IMG/VR virus record: IMGVR_UViG_3300035191_000049
Strand: one strand, 5' to 3'
Source of the DNA: a virus
Length of the DNA stretch: 18,800 nucleotides
Part shown: positions 1 to 16,472 of the stretch, piece by piece
How positions within the stretch are numbered: position 1 is the first letter of the stretch
Layout: each line of letters begins with the position of its first letter
Program-made: the position numbers and the translations under genes
The notes under the pieces: generated by a model
What the model was told of the DNA's origin: nothing
Database searches by the model: none
What the model saw: the letters and a program-made list of their open reading frames with translations, nothing else

Positions 1-323
1 CGCCATCCTCGCTAACCCGATAACCACGAGCAAACGCAGCACATACTGCACGGGCTCTTTTTGAACGATAACCTGAAGACACAGTTACACCCCTTTTGAA
101 AAAATGATTCCATCCGACAAATGGGCAAGAGATAGCACACGGCGCCCCGTTTCGGCCTCCGTACACCGCTCCTCCGAAGAGGGTTACGGCACTGGGAACG
201 CAGCCACCGCTTTCGTTGTGACCGCTGTCGCTGAGTGCCTGCCAGCGTCTTTTTACAGCAAGCAACATCGCTACCTTAGGACCGTTAGTTGATGTAATCC
301 CTCTGGCATTCGGATCGAATCGG

Positions 324-396
324 TCGGAGTGACTGGACTTGAACCAGCAACCTCCAGCTCCCAAAGCTGGCGCGCTACCACTTGCGCAACACCCCG
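324..396 (-). tRNA. tRNA-Pro (anticodon TGG)
   Basis: Hand-folded cloverleaf on the minus strand. Acceptor CGGGGTG/CACTCCG with one G-U pair. D-arm GCGC-AAGTGGTA-GCGC. Anticodon stem CCAGC/GCTGG with loop TTTGGGA. T-arm GCTGG-TTCAAGT-CCAGT. No CCA is encoded. Confidence 0.75.
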
Positions 397-397
397 A

Positions 398-474
398 TGG
401 TCGGGCTGGTGGGAGTCGAACCCACACTACTCCGCGTCCCGAACGCGGCGGCTTACCATCAAGCCCTCAGCCCG
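398..474 (-). tRNA. tRNA-Pro (anticodon CGG), CCA encoded
   Basis: Acceptor CGGGCTG/CAGCCCG followed by a discriminator and CCA. D-arm GGCT-TGATGGTA-AGCC. Anticodon stem CCGCG/CGCGG with loop TTCGGGA. T-arm GTGGG-TTCGACT-CCCAC. The variable loop has 6 nt. Confidence 0.7.
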
Positions 475-538
475 TGTTTGGGGATGATTATTGAGTGCCG
501 TCCCCGAACACTTTTTCCACAAGCTGCCAACCCATGGG

Positions 539-641
539 TGGACCTGGCGGGAATCGAACCCGCGTCCACGCACAGTCCATTCGTAGGCTCTACGTGCGTA
601 GCCCTGCTTCAATACGACCGGTAGACCAGCAAGGCAGGTCG
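539..641 (-). tRNA. tRNA-like element, atypical (about 103 nt): canonical T-arm and 6/7-bp acceptor pairing but an unresolved, over-long body
   Basis: A perfect T-arm (GCGGG-TTCGATT-CCCGC) sits at 547-563 next to the acceptor 3' strand at 540-546. The only complementary 5' acceptor strand lies at 635-641, with a C-C mismatch at 1-72. The roughly 70 nt in between contain several hairpins (CGTAG/CTACG and CCTGC/GCAGG) but no clean D-arm or anticodon-arm solution. Confidence 0.3.
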
Positions 642-949
642 TACCCGGAAGATGTCCACTCTCTATCTCGTCAGCCCCGAGCGAGCGGAGACTTGAAAGC
701 TGACCAGCCACTAAATGACGTCCCATCCCGAGTCGCGGCACCTCAGGTGGAACGGAAGCTTACGCCGCCCTCGCGAGCGGTGCTTCATGGTAGTTATCGG
801 TGTTGACAACTGATTTTTTGCCTCCCGTTTTGACGGGCAAGGAGACATCTCCGGCACGCTCCTACGTACTTCATGTACCTGTCGAAACCAAATCAGGCCC
901 ATGCGGGCCACCCCTGCGTCCTCCTTGCGAAGGATAGCTGGGAGCCCTA

Positions 950-1036
950 CGGCAGAGGGGAGAATCGAACTCCATCCCTTTTACAGGACCATCCGATTAG
1001 CAGTCGGCGACGGGTCCATACCCGCTTCTCTCTGCC
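950..1036 (-). tRNA. tRNA-Ser (anticodon GCT), type II with long variable arm
   Basis: Acceptor GGCAGAG/CTCTGCC pairs 7/7. T-arm GGAG-TTCGATT-CTCC. Anticodon stem CCGA/TCGG with loop CTGCTAA. Length is 87 nt with an extra arm. The D region (CGGG-TATGGA-CCCG) is not fully resolved. Confidence 0.6.
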
Positions 1037-1037
1037 A

Positions 1038-1127
1038 CGGAAGGAGGAGGACTTGAACCCCACCCGCCTCTTCAGCGAGCGCACTGTTTTCGAAACAGGC
1101 TCGTCAACCCTGGACGATTCCCCTTCC
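1038..1127 (-). tRNA. tRNA-Ser (anticodon CGA), type II
   Basis: Acceptor GGAAGGG/TCCTTCC with one G-U pair. T-arm with loop TTCAAGT. Anticodon stem CTGT/ACAG with loop TTCGAAA. D stem CGTC/GACG. Length is 90 nt. Confidence 0.55.
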
Positions 1128-1132
1128 AACAG

Positions 1133-1217
1133 CGGAAGCCGAGGGACTTGAACCCCACCCCTTTTGAGAGCGCACCGCTTTCCAAGCGGGCATGGCACCC
1201 TGGCCATTTCAGCTTCC
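1133..1217 (-). tRNA. tRNA-Ser (anticodon GGA), type II
   Basis: Acceptor GGAAGCT/GGCTTCC with one G-U pair. The T-arm TTCAAGT motif is identical to the neighbouring Ser gene. Anticodon stem CCGC/GCGG with loop TTGGAAA. Length is 85 nt. Confidence 0.55.
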
Positions 1218-1381
1218 AGGCGCCCCTCCAATGAGCGCTCAGAGGAGGGACTTTCGCCACCGTTACCAGCGACAGGACAGGAACATGCTGCCCAAGGCCC
1301 ACGGCTTGCCGTGGGGGATGAAGCTAGGGGCCGAAATTCGGTCCCCTGCACCCGGTTGCCGAAGCTTCCGGGGGGATAGGG

Positions 1382-1463
1382 CGGAGGGTGTACGAGTCGA
1401 ACGCGCCCCGTCAAGGGTCATCGGTGTTCAAAACCGCGCCGGCACCACTGCCGCTCACCCTCC
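1382..1463 (-). tRNA. tRNA-Ser (anticodon TGA), type II
   Basis: Acceptor GGAGGGT/ACCCTCC pairs 7/7. D-arm CGG-CAGTGGTG-CCG. Anticodon stem CGGT/ACCG with loop TTTGAAC. Variable arm of 15 nt. T-arm GCGCG-TTCGACT-CGTAC. Confidence 0.65.
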
Positions 1464-1466
1464 ATG

Positions 1467-1538
1467 CGGTACCGACGGGAGTCGAACCCGCTTTCTCCTG
1501 GTCGACAGCCAGGTGTCCTACCGTTGGACCTCGGTACC
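1467..1538 (-). tRNA. tRNA-Asp (anticodon GTC)
   Basis: Acceptor GGTACCG/CGGTACC pairs 7/7. D-arm GTCC-AACGGTA-GGAC. Anticodon stem CCTGG/CCAGG with loop CTGTCGA. T-arm with loop TTCGACT. Confidence 0.75.
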
Positions 1539-1963
1539 TAGTGAACATAGCCTTTTCCAACCGGCTCGACCACCGACTGAAAAAGCTTTTCGATCGCGAC
1601 GTCGAGGTTGACGCCGTCTTTGGGACGAGCCATCGCCTTGGGTGAGTCGATTCGGATCGCACAGGTGTAGAGCTTCGCGAGCTGCATCCAGAAGACTGCC
1701 TCCCATGGAGGAACATCCTCGTCCAGATAGGGGACACGATGCCCCGCTGCGTAGGTCCGAATCTGACCCGAGACGATGCTGATGAAGGCGTGGTTTGGAA
1801 CCACTCCGAACGGAATCGACTCTTCCGTCCTGAGGACGCGAATCGCCCAGCGCTCTTCGTCACGGTCAAAGATGACGACACCGACGGGTGCCGCCGCGTT
1901 GTGCTCCGGCCTGTACATCTGACGAATGATGACGTAGCCGAAGTCCAGGTCTTCCAAAGCCAT
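1538..1963 (-). CDS. hypothetical protein (141 aa) embedded in the tRNA array
   Basis: ORF-track ORF 1538..2101, trimmed to the internal Met (MALEDLDFGYVIIRQMYRPEH...) because tRNA-Phe occupies 1975-2049. The composition looks protein-like. I recognised no family. Confidence 0.45.
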   Translation of the reverse strand: MALEDLDFGYVIIRQMYRPEHNAAAPVGVVIFDRDEERWAIRVLRTEESIPFGVVPNHAFISIVSGQIRTYAAGHRVPYLDEDVPPWEAVFWMQLAKLYTCAIRIDSPKAMARPKDGVNLDVAIEKLFQSVVEPVGKGYVH

Positions 1964-1974
1964 GTCATTCCCCC

Positions 1975-2049
1975 TGGTGGGCCAGATCGGAATCGAACCG
2001 ATATCTGCCGCATTTTCAGTGCGGGCTCTTACCAATTGAGTACTGACCC
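1975..2049 (-). tRNA. tRNA-Phe (anticodon GAA), CCA encoded
   Basis: Acceptor GGGTCAG/CTGGCCC with one G-U pair, followed by ACCA. D-arm CTCA-ATTGGTA-AGAG. Anticodon stem CCGCA/TGCGG with loop CTGAAAA, matching the canonical Phe loop. T-arm ATCGG-TTCGATT-CCGAT. Confidence 0.8.
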
Positions 2050-2138
2050 AAAAGAGTGGTGAATCACCTTGCTTCCTTCCGGACCTGGGGCAACTCACCA
2101 CCCCACAAAAAGGGGGTCAGCATGGCTGGCGACCATAC

Positions 2139-2213
2139 TGGCACCGGCAACAGGACTTGAACCTGTATTCACGGCTTCAAAGGCCGTTGTCCTACCGATT
2201 GGACGATACCGGT
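2139..2213 (-). tRNA. tRNA-Gln (anticodon TTG), CCA encoded
   Basis: Acceptor ACCGGTA/TGCCGGT with one U-G pair, followed by GCCA. U8 is present. D-arm GTCC-AATCGGTA-GGAC. Anticodon stem ACGGC/GCCGT with loop CTTTGAA. T-arm ACAGG-TTCAAGT-CCTGT, perfect. Confidence 0.8.
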
Positions 2214-2467
2214 ATTCCACCCCAGCTCACTCTCCCGATCGACGCCGTTTGGACCACCTGCTCCTCCAGACGCAAGATGGCCACCAAGCGCCTGAATTCA
2301 ACGCAGGTCGGGGCGGTACCTTCCCCGAATCTCACACGACTGGTGTGCGTCTTGTGTCGAGCGGCAACTGCTCCGTATCCTCGGTGAGCCGATCGGGCGT
2401 TTCCCAGAGACGACTGCAGTCGTTGATCTCAATCGACCTACTCCAGGTTGCCGAAACGGAGCTGAGG

Positions 2468-2543
2468 TGGCTGGGGTGGAGAGGCTCGAACTCCCGACAA
2501 CCTGGGCCAGAACCAGGTGCTCTTCCAACTGAGCTACACCCCA
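2468..2543 (-). tRNA. tRNA-Gln (anticodon CTG), CCA encoded
   Basis: Acceptor TGGGGTG/CACCCCA pairs 7/7, followed by GCCA. U8 is present. D-arm GCTC-AGTTGGAA-GAGC. Anticodon stem CCTGG/CCAGG with loop TTCTGGC. T-arm with loop TTCGAGC. Confidence 0.8.
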
Positions 2544-2550
2544 AGGGTAG

Positions 2551-2624
2551 CGGGCCAGGAGGGAATTGAACCCCCATCTCCAGGTTAACAGCCTGGCGCT
2601 AAAACCAGTATCAGCTACTGACCC
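2551..2624 (-). tRNA. tRNA-Asn (anticodon GTT)
   Basis: Acceptor GGGTCAG/CTGGCCC, the same acceptor as tRNA-Phe. U8 is present. D stem GCTG/TAGC. Anticodon stem CCAGG/CCTGG with loop CTGTTAA, matching the canonical Asn loop. T-arm with loop TTCAATT. Confidence 0.75.
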
Positions 2625-2629
2625 ACGAT

Positions 2630-2655
2630 CCGGCGCCCCAGCAAGGGGGCGCCGG
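2630..2655. other. perfect 10-bp GC hairpin (CCGGCGCCCC-AGCAAG-GGGGCGCCGG) between tRNA-Asn and tRNA-Lys
   Basis: Read directly from the sequence. No flanking U-run on either strand, so it is not a classical intrinsic terminator. It may be a processing or structural element within the tRNA transcript. Confidence 0.5.
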
Positions 2656-2721
2656 TAATTGATGCCTGATTGTCAAAGATCAACGTGGCCGTCACCACTG
2701 GACCGACGTTGTCCAATTTAG

Positions 2722-2796
2722 CCGGGGCGAGAGGATTCGAACCTCCGACCAAGTGATTAAGAGTCACCCACTCTAGCCAGACTGAGTTACGCCCCG
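2722..2796 (-). tRNA. tRNA-Lys (anticodon CTT)
   Basis: Acceptor CGGGGCG/CGCCCCG pairs 7/7. U8 is present. D-arm ACTC-AGTCTGGCTA-GAGT. Anticodon stem with a G-U closing pair and loop CTCTTAA. T-arm AGAGG-TTCGAAT-CCTCC. Confidence 0.75.
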
Positions 2797-2809
2797 AAAA
2801 CGTTATTTT

Positions 2810-2881
2810 GTGGGTCCACTGAGATTCGAACTCAGACCGCCTGATTAAAAGTCAGGAGCGCTACCCTTACGCTCATGGACC
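2810..2881 (-). tRNA. tRNA-Lys (anticodon TTT)
   Basis: Acceptor GGGTCCA/TGGACCC pairs 7/7. Anticodon stem CCTGA/TCAGG with loop CTTTTAA, matching the canonical Lys loop. T-arm CTGAG-TTCGAAT-CTCAG, perfect. The D region (GCG...CGC) is less clean. Confidence 0.75.
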
Positions 2882-2904
2882 CTGCTTTCTCCTCCAAAAA
2901 CGTC

Positions 2905-2939
2905 AAAAGCCGCCTCGGTTGACCCGGGGCGGCTTTTTT
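2905..2939. terminator. bidirectional rho-independent terminator (AAAA-GCCGCCTCGG-TTGAC-CCGGGGCGGC-TTTTTT)
   Basis: A 10-bp GC-rich stem (one G-U pair) with a 5-nt loop. A T6 run follows it on the plus strand. On the minus strand TTTTGACGTTTTT follows it. It sits between the 50-aa ORF and tRNA-Lys(TTT). Confidence 0.75.
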
Positions 2940-2959
2940 CGCGTCATATGCGCTTCAGC

Positions 2960-3112
2960 CTACCCCGGGGGACCCTCCTGAAGCGCGACGTTGGTATCAA
3001 TGGCAAATGGCGTACAGGAGGGCCGTTCCAAGCATGACGGGTGATTCAACGACCACCCGCTACGCTTGAGCAGCTCCCTTGTTGTCAGATAGCTTTTGCC
3101 GCCTTTTTCCAT
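2960..3112 (-). CDS. small ORF (50 aa, MEKGGKSYLTTRELLKRSGWSLNHPS...), possible HTH-like regulator, or else the body of an sRNA
   Basis: It lies entirely between the predicted promoter (3165-3192) and the terminator (2905-2939). An AGGA motif precedes the ATG but with only 2 nt of spacing. The LTTRELLKRSGWS segment resembles a helix-turn-helix turn. It is below the 60-aa cutoff of the ORF track. Confidence 0.3.
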   Translation of the reverse strand: MEKGGKSYLTTRELLKRSGWSLNHPSCLERPSCTPFAIDTNVALQEGPPG

Positions 3113-3163
3113 GATCCTGGTTTCTGTTTCGATACTCTCCGGGCCTTTCTCTAGCCCATGTAA

Positions 3164-3175
3164 AGTAGCATATGC
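3164..3175. promoter_or_regulatory. perfect 12-bp palindrome TAGCATATGCTA (copy 1), operator-like
   Basis: The identical 12-mer recurs at 16451-16462, also inside a minus-strand promoter. A chance recurrence of a 12-mer within 18.8 kb is very unlikely. Confidence 0.55.
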
Positions 3176-3192
3176 TATCCACAGAGCGTGTC
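3165..3192 (-). promoter_or_regulatory. sigma70-like promoter on the minus strand: -35 TTGACA (3187-3192), 16-nt spacer, -10 TATGCT (3165-3170)
   Basis: The hexamers were read from the reverse complement. The -10 lies inside the palindrome TAGCATATGCTA (3164-3175). The predicted TSS is near 3157 and would drive the 50-aa ORF/sRNA unit, with possible read-through into the tRNA array. Confidence 0.45.
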
Positions 3193-3225
3193 AACAAGAA
3201 AATGCTTGACAGCCCAAACTTTTTC

Positions 3226-3615
3226 CTATGCGGCCGTTTTCTTTGAGGGTTTTTTCTGACTGTTCAGCAGCTCAACAGTCGCAACGTACTCTCTCTCGAA
3301 GTCCTCAGGACTAAGAACCCAAGCGATCTCCATATCATGCAAGAGATACCCCCCCTCGGGGACATCATGAGCAGCGCAGCCGTCACCCTCTGGGACACCC
3401 AGGAGTCTTAAAGGGATATCCATCTTAAAGGCGCGCACCGACTCTCCCGTTTTCCTGGAGACGTACCAGGACCAGGGCAGCTCTTCAAAAACCATCGGCT
3501 CCTGCCGATAGTTGCGATTTTCCAGCGGAACCGACTCAGGCTCCGTGTACTCTCGACGCCCGTCGTAGACAGTCAAGCCGAAGAGCCTTCTGAATGACAT
3601 TCCAAGCTCGTACAT
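3226..3615 (-). CDS. hypothetical protein (129 aa)
   Basis: ORF-track ORF. Its start lies 1 nt after the stop of the methyltransferase gene. No motif recognised. Confidence 0.5.
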   Translation of the reverse strand: MYELGMSFRRLFGLTVYDGRREYTEPESVPLENRNYRQEPMVFEELPWSWYVSRKTGESVRAFKMDIPLRLLGVPEGDGCAAHDVPEGGYLLHDMEIAWVLSPEDFEREYVATVELLNSQKKPSKKTAA

Positions 3616-3616
3616 A

Positions 3617-4309
3617 TCAGAACCCCGTTTCCATTGCCTCTCGACTCTGCTTCCTAAATCTCACAACAAACTGCAATCCGGCTTTATCGATTGGCTGCCT
3701 GGTGTACGCTTTCAGGTATGTCGAGCATACAAATTCAACTGCCAAGCCAAGCTTCCTTGCCAGCGACACGAAAAACCCCGCGGGGAACCTTGCCCCGTTG
3801 AGTTCCCCGTCTCTCCAGGGATGCATTCCACTGGTTGTGTGCTCACCGTTCAACGACTCGTTGTAAGTAGAGAAGTAAACTCCATTTTCAGCCATACGAC
3901 CAAACACAGCGCCCAGGCATGCTTCAACCTGAGAGGGCGTCATATGCGTCATGACCGAGTGAGACCAGGCGAAGTCAAACCGAATCCCCTCGGGCAACAA
4001 AGAAAGATCAAAATCCGTCGACTGAAAAAGAGTAGCTTTCTTATCAACCAGGCCCTGAAGGACGATCTCTTCGCGAGCTGCAGACAGGACGTGTTCGTTG
4101 TGATCAAGGCCAAAATAGTGTCCAGGCTCCAAGTAGTCGATGAAAAAACGTCCAGCCCGCAGTGCCCCACAGCCCACCTCAAGCATGTAGTGGGAAGGAA
4201 CAAGACCATGAGCTTTGGCAAATTCAAATAGAAGCTCTCCATCCTCCCAGGTTTCACAGCCGTGGATTTCTTTTGTACGCCACCACTTATCGCTCGTCGG
4301 CTTAGTCAT
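3617..4309 (-). CDS. class I SAM-dependent methyltransferase
   Basis: Rossmann motif I YMLEVGCGALRAG followed by an acidic residue. A GAGGGG Shine-Dalgarno site lies about 9 nt upstream. This segment has lower GC (about 50%) than the rest of the window. Confidence 0.65.
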   Translation of the reverse strand: MTKPTSDKWWRTKEIHGCETWEDGELLFEFAKAHGLVPSHYMLEVGCGALRAGRFFIDYLEPGHYFGLDHNEHVLSAAREEIVLQGLVDKKATLFQSTDFDLSLLPEGIRFDFAWSHSVMTHMTPSQVEACLGAVFGRMAENGVYFSTYNESLNGEHTTSGMHPWRDGELNGARFPAGFFVSLARKLGLAVEFVCSTYLKAYTRQPIDKAGLQFVVRFRKQSREAMETGF

Positions 4310-4381
4310 TAACTCAAACCCCTCAGCAACCCAACGCGGTTAGTGCCTGCCAAATGACAAGACTTACCAAAATCCCAATAA

Positions 4382-4618
4382 TCACCGCGAGGATAGACCC
4401 CAATCGTCCCTCACCCCCTCCACCTCTGCCCCGGTACATACCACCCTCGCCACAAAGACCATCACCATCCAGGTAAAAATGATCACTGCTAGCCACAGTA
4501 AAAATCCCAGAGTAGCGCTCCGGACCAACTCCAAAGCACCCTCCTTCTTTCTCTGTTGCATGATGCTCGTGTTTAGCACGTTCATCCTGCAGAAGTCATG
4601 TTCGCTGCGTTTAGCCAA
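4382..4618 (-). CDS. small membrane protein (one TM helix, LGFLLWLAVIIFTWMVMVFVA)
   Basis: ORF-track ORF with a hydrophobic core. The true start may be the internal Met at 4585. Confidence 0.35.
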   Translation of the reverse strand: MAKRSEHDFCRMNVLNTSIMQQRKKEGALELVRSATLGFLLWLAVIIFTWMVMVFVARVVCTGAEVEGVRDDWGLSSR

Positions 4619-5312
4619 CTCTCAGCTTTGCCACACCCCAAGCGTGGTCGTAAATGTGCATCCCCTTGCAACTCCAGATGATTTCACCGGCCGTGACGGT
4701 AACGTCATCAGTACTGATGCACTCGGCCATATACTCCTGCATGAGCCTCACAGCGGCGATATTCGCCGGGAAGCCGTTCCAGAGGTCATTCGACCTGATG
4801 TAGACGAAGAAGTGCAACTCGGGCTCTTCTCCCTCTCGGAGCCCTGATGGGGAGAAAATTCTGGTGTCAATTTGTCGCAGACAGGGCGGGTCATCCAGCG
4901 TTATGTCTTCAGGACGGGCGACAGCAATGCACTCCTGGTTGGAGCCGAAACCGTTTCTGCGGTAGCGGTTGATGATGGCCTCCATCTGGGGAGCCACTCG
5001 CTCGCCATAGGTGTACAGCTCATTTTCCTTGAGAGGCTGGTCTGTCATTAAATAGGGAAGGTACTCCTCTATATATTCCATGGTCGTTGGAGGAGGCACG
5101 TGTGAGAGGTGCTGAGGCATCTCAGGAACGAGGGGGCGCACGCCTGGGTGGGTGACCCGTATCTCCACCCAGTCAAGCTCCCAGCGCTTCTGGCCCTCAT
5201 AGGAACCATGATCAACGACCCACTGTCGCCCATGGGTAAGAACTGCATCGACGGTTTGAAACCAGGCATCGGGCAGGTCCCTGGCTTTGATGTGAATTGG
5301 CTTCAAGGACAT
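4611..5312 (-). CDS. thymidylate synthase-fold enzyme (ThyA/dUMP hydroxymethylase family), divergent
   Basis: Aligns by eye to ThyA core motifs: YTYGERV (compare pVYGkQWR), DDPPCL (catalytic Cys of LAPCH), FVYIRSNDLWNGFPANIAA (compare QLYQRSCDVFLGLPFNIAS, Asn retained), and IIWSCKGMHIYDHAW (compare fVWTGGDTHLYSNH). The ATG at 5312 overlaps the upstream stop as TGATG. Confidence 0.75.
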   Translation of the reverse strand: MSLKPIHIKARDLPDAWFQTVDAVLTHGRQWVVDHGSYEGQKRWELDWVEIRVTHPGVRPLVPEMPQHLSHVPPPTTMEYIEEYLPYLMTDQPLKENELYTYGERVAPQMEAIINRYRRNGFGSNQECIAVARPEDITLDDPPCLRQIDTRIFSPSGLREGEEPELHFFVYIRSNDLWNGFPANIAAVRLMQEYMAECISTDDVTVTAGEIIWSCKGMHIYDHAWGVAKLRVG

Positions 5313-5533
5313 CAACTTTTCTCCTGGGGTCCTACCCCAGCGAGTGGCATCACGTCGATGTACAACCCACGCCAGCCACCTTCAAGCATTTGTCGAACAA
5401 AATAAACGTCCTGAGGATTACCTATCCATACAAAAACCTTCTTGCCGCCGTAAGCCACTCGGACGTCCTTTATCCCATGCACCTTGGTGAGGTGCCCATA
5501 CACAGCTTCAACGATCCCGTCGAAGCGCCTCAT
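5312..5533 (-). CDS. hypothetical protein (73 aa)
   Basis: ORF-track ORF. It is coupled by ATGA and TGATG overlaps to both neighbouring genes. Confidence 0.45.
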   Translation of the reverse strand: MRRFDGIVEAVYGHLTKVHGIKDVRVAYGGKKVFVWIGNPQDVYFVRQMLEGGWRGLYIDVMPLAGVGPQEKS

Positions 5534-6171
5534 GCTTCAGAAACAATGTTTCCTTCGCTGAGCTTCATCACCAGATCGTACTCCGACAGGTCGTCAGGAG
5601 ACGCAATCGCCACTCCATCGCCAACTCGGACGATCGGTATCCACGAAGCACAGCAACCACAGACGATCCGGAGCTGGTCACGGTCGTCACCCTCGAAGTT
5701 GTCGTCCTTTAGACGGGCGAACGTAATGTTTCCAGAGAATCTCGGGTTGTCGTCGTTTCCACCCATTGCGTCGCCACAGACAGGACATGGGCTGTCGAGA
5801 ATGCCGTTTTTAATGAGGTCCGCGATCATCTCCCAGGCCCGACGATCCACGACTAGGTTTGTCGCGAAGAGTGTGTGAGAGTGGAGCCTGTGAGCCTCCT
5901 CGATGGTCATTACATCTGTGGAGAGCGGGGCAAGCTTTGCGAGCTGTTTATGCAACCAACAATGCTGCCCCAGCGCAAGGTCCAACTCACCAACCAAGCG
6001 ATAGGACATGCTTCTTTCACTGAGCTTTTGAAAACAATCAGCGCAGAAACCGATAGGCCTCTCATGATCCGCATAGACGACAGTGACTCTCTCCCAAGGA
6101 GGCTCTTTTTCGCAATCTCGCTGCAAACCACACCCAAGGCAACGCTCCAATATTCGGACAACTTTCGGCAT
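5530..6171 (-). CDS. Cys-rich (Zn-ribbon-like) hypothetical protein
   Basis: Multiple CxxC pairs (CLGCG, CADC, CPVCGD, CGCC). A strong AGGAGG Shine-Dalgarno site precedes it. Confidence 0.55.
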   Translation of the reverse strand: MPKVVRILERCLGCGLQRDCEKEPPWERVTVVYADHERPIGFCADCFQKLSERSMSYRLVGELDLALGQHCWLHKQLAKLAPLSTDVMTIEEAHRLHSHTLFATNLVVDRRAWEMIADLIKNGILDSPCPVCGDAMGGNDDNPRFSGNITFARLKDDNFEGDDRDQLRIVCGCCASWIPIVRVGDGVAIASPDDLSEYDLVMKLSEGNIVSEA

Positions 6172-16202: not shown

Positions 16203-16438
16203 TACCCACCCGAAACCACCTGTGGCGATTCCGCCTCCACTGCCTTGTAGGCCTCAAGCAAATCGTTCATAGCGTGTGCGAGCTGCCCCCGTTGCATCGA
16301 CAGAAACGCCTTTTCCTCCTCGCTCAGATTCGTGCCGAGCGCTTGATCGATAGACTGGATGCCCATCTGAAGCTCACTGATCTTGCCTTGTGCGACCGCC
16401 AATAGTAGGCGCAATTGTGCAGGTGTCATGGTAGTCAT
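16202..16438 (-). CDS. hypothetical protein (78 aa)
   Basis: ORF-track ORF. First gene after the predicted promoter at 16445-16472. The ATG lies only about 6 nt from the -10, so the mRNA may be leaderless. Confidence 0.45.
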   Translation of the reverse strand: MTTMTPAQLRLLLAVAQGKISELQMGIQSIDQALGTNLSEEEKAFLSMQRGQLAHAMNDLLEAYKAVEAESPQVVSGG

Positions 16439-16444
16439 AATATA

Positions 16445-16472
16445 GCATATGCTACCTTGGTCAACTTAAAAG
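16445..16472 (-). promoter_or_regulatory. sigma70-like promoter on the minus strand: -35 TTGACC (16467-16472), 16-nt spacer, -10 TATTAT (16445-16450)
   Basis: Read from the reverse complement. The spacer contains the palindrome TAGCATATGCTA (16451-16462). This is the likely promoter of the long minus-strand operon that extends down toward 3226. Confidence 0.5.
16451..16462. promoter_or_regulatory. perfect 12-bp palindrome TAGCATATGCTA (copy 2), operator-like
   Basis: Identical to the copy at 3164-3175. Confidence 0.55.

Follow-up and report, generated by a model that had tools for sequence, protein, structure and literature searches.

A candidate structured RNA unit between a long operon and the tRNA/tmRNA array of an uncultivated phage

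Large phages carry tRNA/tmRNA arrays, and the genome studied here bears on how such arrays are switched on, with a small putative transcription unit at the entrance of one of them. We analyzed an 18,800-nt stretch (hereafter, the window) of the IMG/VR virus record IMGVR_UViG_3300035191_000049, a 61.6-kb JGI metagenome contig. In the window, the long ORFs are all on the minus strand, from ~18.7 kb down to position 3226. These ORFs, which include an operon of ~13 kb upstream of the spacer described below, encode nucleotide-metabolism and modification proteins, of a type typical of large phages: a thymidylate kinase, DUF5131, a phosphoribosyltransferase-like protein, a DUF3850 protein, two radical-SAM proteins, cpYpsA, a thymidylate-synthase-like protein and a SAM methyltransferase. 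A 343-nt spacer (3225-2883) lies between the last protein gene (129-aa product) and the first tRNA gene. The array, also minus-strand, spans 2882-322 and contains 10 tRNA genes and a tmRNA; a relaxed ARAGORN run gave three further tRNA-Ser genes. A search against GenBank phages returned matches to the tRNAs only. For the spacer, the initial annotation proposed a self-contained promoter, a 50-aa ORF or sRNA, and a terminator. Our analyses favor a unit that most likely encodes a small non-coding RNA, or a leader, in this uncultivated phage.

The promoter, which had been placed at 3165-3192 on the minus strand, is present at 3194-3167 and is invariant in the three relatives described below. This promoter (hereafter, P1) has a -35 element TTGACA (3194-3189), a 16-nt spacer and a -10 element TATGCT (3172-3167), and lies ~30 nt beyond the stop codon of the last gene in the operon. 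It has 10 of 12 matches to the sigma70 consensus in a consensus scan, sigma70 rules being an assumption for this phage's host. Judged by count, sigma70-like sites are at chance level (2 found in 6 kb vs 2.0 expected). P1 has both hexamers within the 16-18 nt spacing of sigma70-type promoters and is conserved in relatives, with hexamers and spacing identical in L001-L004 and a promoter block that is 89-95% identical to L002 and L003. Transcription is predicted to start near 3161.

A perfect 12-bp palindrome, TAGCATATGCTA (3166-3177), overlaps the -10 element of P1 and is a putative operator. It occurs exactly twice in the window, compared with 0.18 occurrences expected even when two mismatches are allowed, and is invariant in all relatives. 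The other copy (16443-16454) falls between the hexamers of another sigma70-like promoter (TTGACC-16 nt-TATTAT, 16437-16464, minus strand), which heads the long minus-strand operon. The 14-mer ATAGCATATGCTAC has opposite orientations at the two promoters and the distance from the palindrome to the -35 element differs between them, which fits the operator of a dimeric regulator, not a directional promoter element. Judging from this arrangement, the small unit and the long operon would be co-regulated via their common palindrome. Of the suggested autoregulator binding a palindrome, the palindrome does exist, in the promoter and again at the head of the operon, but nothing ties a palindrome-binding regulator to the 50-aa ORF.

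At the other end of the unit is a two-way intrinsic terminator (2905-2939), with a GC-rich stem at 2909-2933, an A-tract at 2934-2939 and a U-tract at 2905-2908, which reads AAAAAA-GCCGCCCCGGG-UCAA-CCGAGGCGGC-UUUU on the minus strand; a second U-run follows at 2896-2900. Both strands are predicted to fold here, the minus strand at -23.4 kcal/mol (z -5.0) and the plus strand, where the hairpin is followed by 6 U, at -28.8 kcal/mol (z -6.2), so the terminator is predicted to be bidirectional in form, in agreement with the strong bidirectional terminator that had been annotated here. The minus-strand version has 9 G-C pairs, a C.A mismatch and a 5-nt loop, then UUUUGACGUUUUU, and its U-tract has only 4 U before GACGUUUUU (GACG). 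An automatic terminator scan did not list 2905-2939; our guess is that the plus-strand stem was extended into the A/U tracts and that the minus-strand mismatch was not tolerated. The terminator is invariant in the relatives, save one loop base in L003.

From ~3161 to ~2900, P1 and the terminator delimit a predicted transcript of ~260 nt, and all parts of the self-contained unit are thus in place. No other terminator was found between 3226 and 2939, from which we infer that transcripts of the upstream operon also end at 2905-2939. The first gene of the array, tRNA-Lys(UUU) (2810-2882, minus strand), starts 22 nt past the terminator U-tract (the initial estimate was about 24 nt), and the scan of positions 1-6000 found no other sigma70-like site on the strand of the array. 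Given the imperfect minus-strand terminator, this short gap and the lack of another such site, the array would most simply be supplied by read-through, with RNase P-type processing of the resulting transcripts. The dependence of the tRNAs on read-through or processing that had been suggested is therefore supported, by inference, from the layout of the locus.

To compare the unit with its counterparts, relatives were found via the 129-aa upstream protein, which retrieved only three among 5.8 billion protein clusters, also when searched by profile. They are from independent metagenomic contigs, namely L004 (identical over the element), L002 and L003, and the comparisons accordingly rest on only three distinct sequences. 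The order gene-promoter-RNA-terminator-tRNA-Lys is kept in the three closely related lineages. In all relatives, a tRNA-Lys gene follows the terminator within 22-30 nt; in L002 and L003 this gene lies 25-30 nt away and differs in sequence. The tRNA-Lys genes were replaced, yet the position of the unit was kept. No paralogues of the element were detected in the window or in the loci of the relatives, and the radical-SAM neighbor gene had no close relative in IMG/VR. Two 20-mers from the core of the element had no match in IMG/VR, and one 20-mer searched against metagenomes and GTDB genomes matched only unrelated sequence, mostly on Isosphaeraceae-like contigs, with flanks that do not align and ~1 match expected by chance. 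These metagenome and GTDB matches also exclude an obvious host-derived attP/attB core for the 20-mer stretch.

The conservation within the unit is strongly uneven. A 174-nt block at its 3' side (2897-3070, minus strand), comprising a hairpin A, a linker, a hairpin B and the terminator, is nearly frozen, with one substitution relative to each of L002 and L003 (98.9% identity over the block), and is a candidate functional RNA core. For comparison, the neighboring 129-aa gene has changed at ~32% of its third codon positions (41 of 125 in L002, 38 of 121 in L003), identity is 97-100% for orthologous tRNAs, and it is 83-91% for the spacers between tRNA genes. Judged by identity, the block is as conserved as the tRNA genes and more conserved than the spacers between them. 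The whole unit has 90-94% identity vs 80-82% for the flanking DNA. Between the promoter and the frozen block is a variable segment (3071-3139, minus strand) that includes the 5' UTR, a weak Shine-Dalgarno (SD) site, the ATG and ORF codons 1-14; its identity is 67% to L002 and 88% to L003, with 8-nt and 3-nt indels. In a 5-kb alignment with L002, the 60-nt windows of at least 98% identity are nearly all in the frozen block and the tRNA genes, the exceptions being a spacer hairpin at ~2625-2684 (97-98%) and part of 1550-1699. This mosaic, with a conserved promoter, a diverged middle with indels and a frozen 3' block, argues against a single recent recombination patch. The frozen block starts inside the ORF, at codon 15, and extends 60 nt past its stop codon. 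Protein coding cannot explain frozen synonymous sites together with a frozen 3' untranslated part, whereas constraint at the nucleotide level, such as RNA genes show, can.

The structures that follow are thermodynamic predictions. Near the 5' end of the transcript, a hairpin (3140-3158, minus strand; -8.1 kcal/mol, z -2.0) has a GGGCU/GGCCC stem and a 7-nt purine-only loop. The loop varies among the sequences (AGAGAAA, AGAGGAA, AGAAAAA) and is always all-purine, and two one-sided compatible changes (U-A to U-G, G-C to G-U) leave the stem intact. Its purine loop may recall lambda boxB/nut, an analogy to which we give little weight. Hairpin A (3028-3069, minus strand) has 17 bp with one bulge and contains G-U pairs, because of which it is ~8 kcal/mol more stable on the minus strand (-24.9 kcal/mol, z -5.5) than on the plus strand (-16.9 kcal/mol). 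This asymmetry points to a minus-strand RNA, not to DNA. The linker GGCCCUCCUG (3015-3024, minus strand) includes an anti-SD-like CCUCCU and is complementary to CAGGAGGGUC (2980-2971) in hairpin B. Hairpin B (2950-2986, minus strand), already noted as a 9-bp hairpin in the initial annotation, has a perfect 9-bp stem (arms 2950-2958 and 2978-2986) and a 19-nt loop, which holds the ORF stop codon and CCCGGGGUAGGC (2969-2958), the latter complementary to the 5' arm of the terminator. The whole-transcript fold has a z-score of -3.9 and the frozen block one of -4.2. The variable segment is predicted to pair with the invariant linker, and the pairs of the SD/AUG with 2993-3012 are mostly kept, with 4 broken. 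Compensatory double changes were found in 0 of 86 pairs, helices A, B and the terminator being invariant among the three sequences.

Searches with 2883-3225 against Rfam 15, whose models include T-box, riboswitches, Y RNA/YrlA, 6S and SRP, gave no match at gathering scores, and at E ≤ 5 only terminator-like partial matches to sX6, suhB and RcsR1 were obtained (17-20 bits vs gathering scores of 40-60). Relaxed ARAGORN found no tRNA or tmRNA within the element. A Ro60-like gene is also present on the contig; a Y-RNA partner for it was considered and rejected for this element, given no match to Y_RNA or YrlA and no 5'/3' closing stem. A T-box suggested by a GGGUGGU string was likewise dismissed, as the string is wrongly placed and gave no covariance-model match.

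The 50-aa ORF (MEKGGKSYLTTRELLKRSGWS...; 2960-3112, minus strand) is present as annotated, with its ATG at 3112-3110 and the SD AGGA (3117-3114) 3 nt before it. The further proposal that it encodes an HTH-like Cro protein was not upheld. None of the three ORF variants matched a Pfam family at E ≤ 10, the only PHROGs matches were at E ~0.2 to families of unknown function, and a PDB search gave a single match (E = 0.31) to an FHA protein. A word search of 5.8 billion clusters retrieved no protein with three 5-mers in common with the ORF, which indicates that no gene caller ever predicted it on any contig, and the gene tables of the contigs confirm that it is uncalled. Phmmer against 1.84 billion representatives gave seven matches (E 2.5e-5 to 9e-4), to proteins of 242-2053 aa that each aligned in 3-8 stretches; the two inspected (P0004 and P0005) are repetitive, and the matches were therefore taken as chance. 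An AlphaFold2 single-sequence model, a weak test when made without alignment depth, had a mean pLDDT of 58.7 and one 8-residue helix (residues 11-18). The ORF thus shows neither an HTH profile match nor a predicted multi-helix fold, and it should not be annotated as a Cro-like gene. Trp-type leader-peptide attenuation by its Lys codons was also rejected, as these codons are neither tandem nor conserved (L002 has one).

Taken together, we favor, at a probability of about 55%, a structured RNA of ~260 nt that is made from its own operator-bearing promoter and has the same terminator as the upstream operon, with read-through feeding the tRNA array. P1, with the palindromic operator that it has in common with the promoter of the long operon, would start the transcript. 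Its 5' third would be free to vary, and its 3' 174 nt would be held constant at the nucleotide level. The terminator would end both the small RNA and the transcripts of the 13-kb operon, and polymerases that read through it would supply the tRNA/tmRNA array, which has no room in front for a promoter of its own. The pairings of the hairpin B loop with the terminator arm and of the linker with hairpin B may provide a built-in competitor, by which read-through would be adjustable. The sRNA option of the initial annotation is thus better supported than the protein.

Three other explanations have to be weighed against this RNA. The 50-aa ORF could be translated, giving a small protein or a dual-function RNA, and perhaps a regulator acting at the palindromic operator, which does overlap the promoter of the ORF itself. 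In line with this, each of the three variants has an uninterrupted frame and keeps the ATG, and the 3-nt deletion in L002 is in-frame. The pN/pS of codons 1-15 is ~0.4-0.7, a value that comes from 7-10 substitutions only, with 3-4 of the 7-11 ORF substitutions being synonymous in each comparison. Codon usage, with a score of 0.11 per codon (real genes, 0.44 ± 0.19; unconstrained expectation, ~0), scores above 99% of the off-frame windows of genes, but also below 94% of true in-frame windows, and an ATG-initiated ORF of at least 50 codons occurs in 32% of shuffles of the 343-nt spacer, which is not above chance. Initiation would rely on a weak SD that is changed to AGAA in L003, in a region where SD and AUG are predicted to be base-paired with the invariant linker region. 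The protein has two prolines in the would-be recognition helix, besides the low-confidence model, and had neither an HTH or other family match at E ≤ 10 nor a homologue in the two very large searches. In addition, pS falls from 0.28-0.30 in codons 1-15 to 0-0.04 in codons 16-50, which are frozen at all codon positions, and such synonymous sites, like the equally frozen 3' UTR, imply some constraint in addition to that on a protein. We therefore regard translation, also as part of a dual-function RNA, as unlikely, and the ORF is most likely incidental.

The RNA body might also be unremarkable, the unit being an operon terminator plus an array promoter, and the near identity of the 174 nt coming from recent gene conversion, or from exchange among co-circulating phages, along with the tRNA block. 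The tRNA arrays are indeed mosaic, with the two tRNA-Lys genes swapped and whole genes present or absent between the window and L002. A promoter and a terminator would by themselves explain the position of the unit, and the lineages compared, being only three, may share a recent patch. This account is, however, hard to reconcile with a block that has diverged sequence on both sides and is separated from the promoter by the 67-88% stretch with indels, so that each of two lineages would have to have acquired two or more independent patches. It would also be odd to drive tRNAs from a promoter 260 nt upstream, across a strong terminator, unless the intervening RNA matters, and neither the fold z-scores nor the asymmetry of hairpin A between strands would be accounted for; we find this account rather improbable. 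Still less probable, in our judgment, is that the frozen block works as DNA, whether as an origin of replication, as a site for packaging or recombination, or as an array of protein-binding sites. The block does have several inverted repeats and the palindrome CCCCCGGGG, it lies at a boundary of genome modules, and its terminator hairpin is better on the plus strand. On the other hand, the G-U pairs of hairpin A would become C.A mismatches on the plus strand or if a cruciform formed, there are no iteron-like repeat units and no AT-rich unwinding region (GC 0.49-0.56), and the block is exactly between the conserved promoter and the terminator.

The favored reading, a structured RNA, leaves room for a switch between terminator and antiterminator. 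When the frozen block is folded alone, the antiterminator fold is the minimum free energy structure (-78.9 vs -75.7 kcal/mol, P = 0.98). This fold joins the linker to CAGGAGGGUC in the 5' part of hairpin B, and CCCGGGGUAGGC, from the hairpin B loop, to the terminator 5' arm GCC-GCCCCGGG, so that the terminator cannot form; the C that is mismatched in the terminator (C.A) is Watson-Crick paired in this alternative helix. In the full-length RNA, the 5' third is predicted to pair with the linker, and the terminator form is favored by 3-4.6 kcal/mol in each of the three variants (P 0.997-0.999, an equilibrium prediction). In a post hoc set of shuffles, with the terminator kept and the upstream sequence shuffled, an energy gap as small as the native one was obtained in none of the 300 shuffles of the block and in 11 of the 300 of the full RNA. 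In these models, the native sequence is an unusually strong competitor of its terminator. As the terminator form is predicted at equilibrium in the full-length RNA, the switch may never operate. It is therefore a doubtful proposal, though one consistent with the folding models, that the frozen RNA would be a cis-acting gate, of a new attenuator or antitermination class, for polymerases arriving from P1 and from the 13-kb operon into the tRNA/tmRNA array. The signal for such a gate would act on the variable 5' part or on the anti-SD-like linker, and candidates for it would be ribosome loading, a phage protein on the purine-loop 5' hairpin, or a tRNA.

Whether or not such a gate operates, the conserved RNA may act in trans, perhaps via the anti-SD-like CCUCCU linker, which is predicted to be exposed, or it may affect read-through alone, in cis. 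Acting in trans, it would be a new phage sRNA, and acting in cis, it would give access to how phage tRNA expression is timed.

Several known systems resemble parts of this locus. Like the Cro, Xis and AlpA regulators, the 50-aa ORF is of a similar length, lies behind a palindrome-bearing promoter and has a YLTxxEL-like start reminiscent of Xis/MerR-type HTH proteins, but it differs from them in having no profile match, no predicted second or third helix and no clear conservation signal at the protein level, and in the prolines already mentioned. Attenuators and riboswitch leaders such as the tRNA-sensing T-box likewise have a terminator with a mutually exclusive competing helix, and the leader here also adjoins tRNA genes. 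The genes found behind T-boxes are aminoacyl-tRNA synthetase and amino-acid genes instead, and in this unit no Rfam leader or riboswitch was matched at E ≤ 5 and no specifier or T-box motif was recognized. The tRNA cluster of phage T4 includes the stable RNAs species 1 and 2 (rnaC and rnaD), which are conserved and of unknown function, and which are cut from the tRNA precursor without a promoter-terminator unit of their own. The present RNA is similarly a non-tRNA small RNA in a phage tRNA cluster, but it has its own promoter and terminator and showed no sequence similarity in the phage collection. Type I 3' UTR sRNAs of enterobacteria, such as DapZ and MicL, have their own promoter, use the terminator of the mRNA, depend on Hfq and have defined seeds and targets. 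The present unit is arranged in the same way, with P1 ~30 nt past the final stop codon of the operon and a terminator that would serve both the operon and the RNA, but this terminator precedes further genes and the likeness is one of layout.

The closest parallel is with Pseudomonas phages, which produce abundant short RNAs of <250 nt from promoter-proximal terminators, together with read-through transcripts (PMC10914365). In that study, of the 42 terminators located in 5' UTRs, 81% produced either a short transcript (<250 nt) or a long one by read-through. Northern blots confirmed two of the short phage RNAs, and candidates were reported to be conserved within a genus; examples of these ncRNA candidates are phiKZ T102 and TU237 and the leaders of PAK_P3 and YuA (PMC10914365). 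Those RNAs were seen by ONT-cappable-seq and northern blot, whereas the present one is predicted from sequence; it also precedes a tRNA/tmRNA array, not protein genes, and has no sequence relationship to them. In common with them, it has ~250 nt from promoter to terminator upstream of same-strand genes, conservation in close relatives and no ORF with a good SD. We therefore consider the unit to be a new family-level RNA candidate of an already known kind, the promoter-proximal terminated ncRNAs of phages.

Sequence comparison indicates that the head of the tRNA/tmRNA array is exchanged between lineages, with the conserved promoter-to-terminator element upstream kept in place. We compared the tRNA-Lys regions of the window (2721-2882) and of two metagenomic contigs from relatives that carry the same element, L002 (3478-3713, with three tRNA-Lys genes behind the element) and L003 (895-970). 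The tRNA-Lys genes immediately following the element shared just 60-77% identity between lineages, in contrast to the remaining shared tRNAs, which were 97-100% identical. Relatives also differed elsewhere. At window positions ~3627-4345 and 4625-5462, the greater part of the methyltransferase gene and a large share of the thymidylate-synthase-like region had no aligned counterpart in L002, so this module is mosaic between relatives.

Within the array, the spacer between tRNA-Lys(CUU) and tRNA-Asn holds a hairpin of 10 bp, all G/C and without a U-tract (2630-2655, CCGGCGCCCC-agcaag-GGGGCGCCGG), and the 60 nt around it were 97% identical to L002. Gene calling on the source contigs placed an ORF of 141 aa, which belongs to no known family, inside the array (1538-1963, minus strand). 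Its final ~170 nt were 93-100% identical to L002 (75-88% for the rest), and no unusual structure was found in this final part (z +0.4). A full-length tmRNA (537-900, minus strand; 147.5 bits) lies within this phage array and encodes the tag VNTDNYHEAPLARAA. The spacer between tRNA-Gln(UUG) and tRNA-Phe, 89% identical to L002, contains a sub-threshold match to the bacterial small SRP RNA (2048-2106, minus strand; 28.8 bits versus a gathering score of 40). Three additional long-arm tRNA-Ser genes, with anticodons GCU, CGA, and GGA, were identified on the minus strand at 951-1033, 1038-1127, and 1132-1217; they were absent from the default ARAGORN output and required a relaxed threshold, and in the Rfam scan they appeared as sub-threshold tRNA-Sec matches.

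The 12-bp palindrome TAGCATATGCTA, whose first copy (3166-3177) overlaps the -10 of the element's own promoter, recurs at 16443-16454 in a second sigma70-like promoter (16437-16464). Downstream of this second promoter, an ORF of ~76 aa marks the start of the long minus-strand operon.

The source of the window is a 61.6-kb JGI metagenome contig. Outside the window, ~9 kb past the element on the tRNA side, this contig encodes a Ro60-type vWA protein (PF25045), and genes for an HNH endonuclease and a further methyltransferase lie amid its tRNAs. The presence of a phage Ro60 homologue suggests a Y-RNA-like partner somewhere. Within the window, the sole hit to Y RNA or YrlA was a weak 17-bit YrlA match at 2519-2578.
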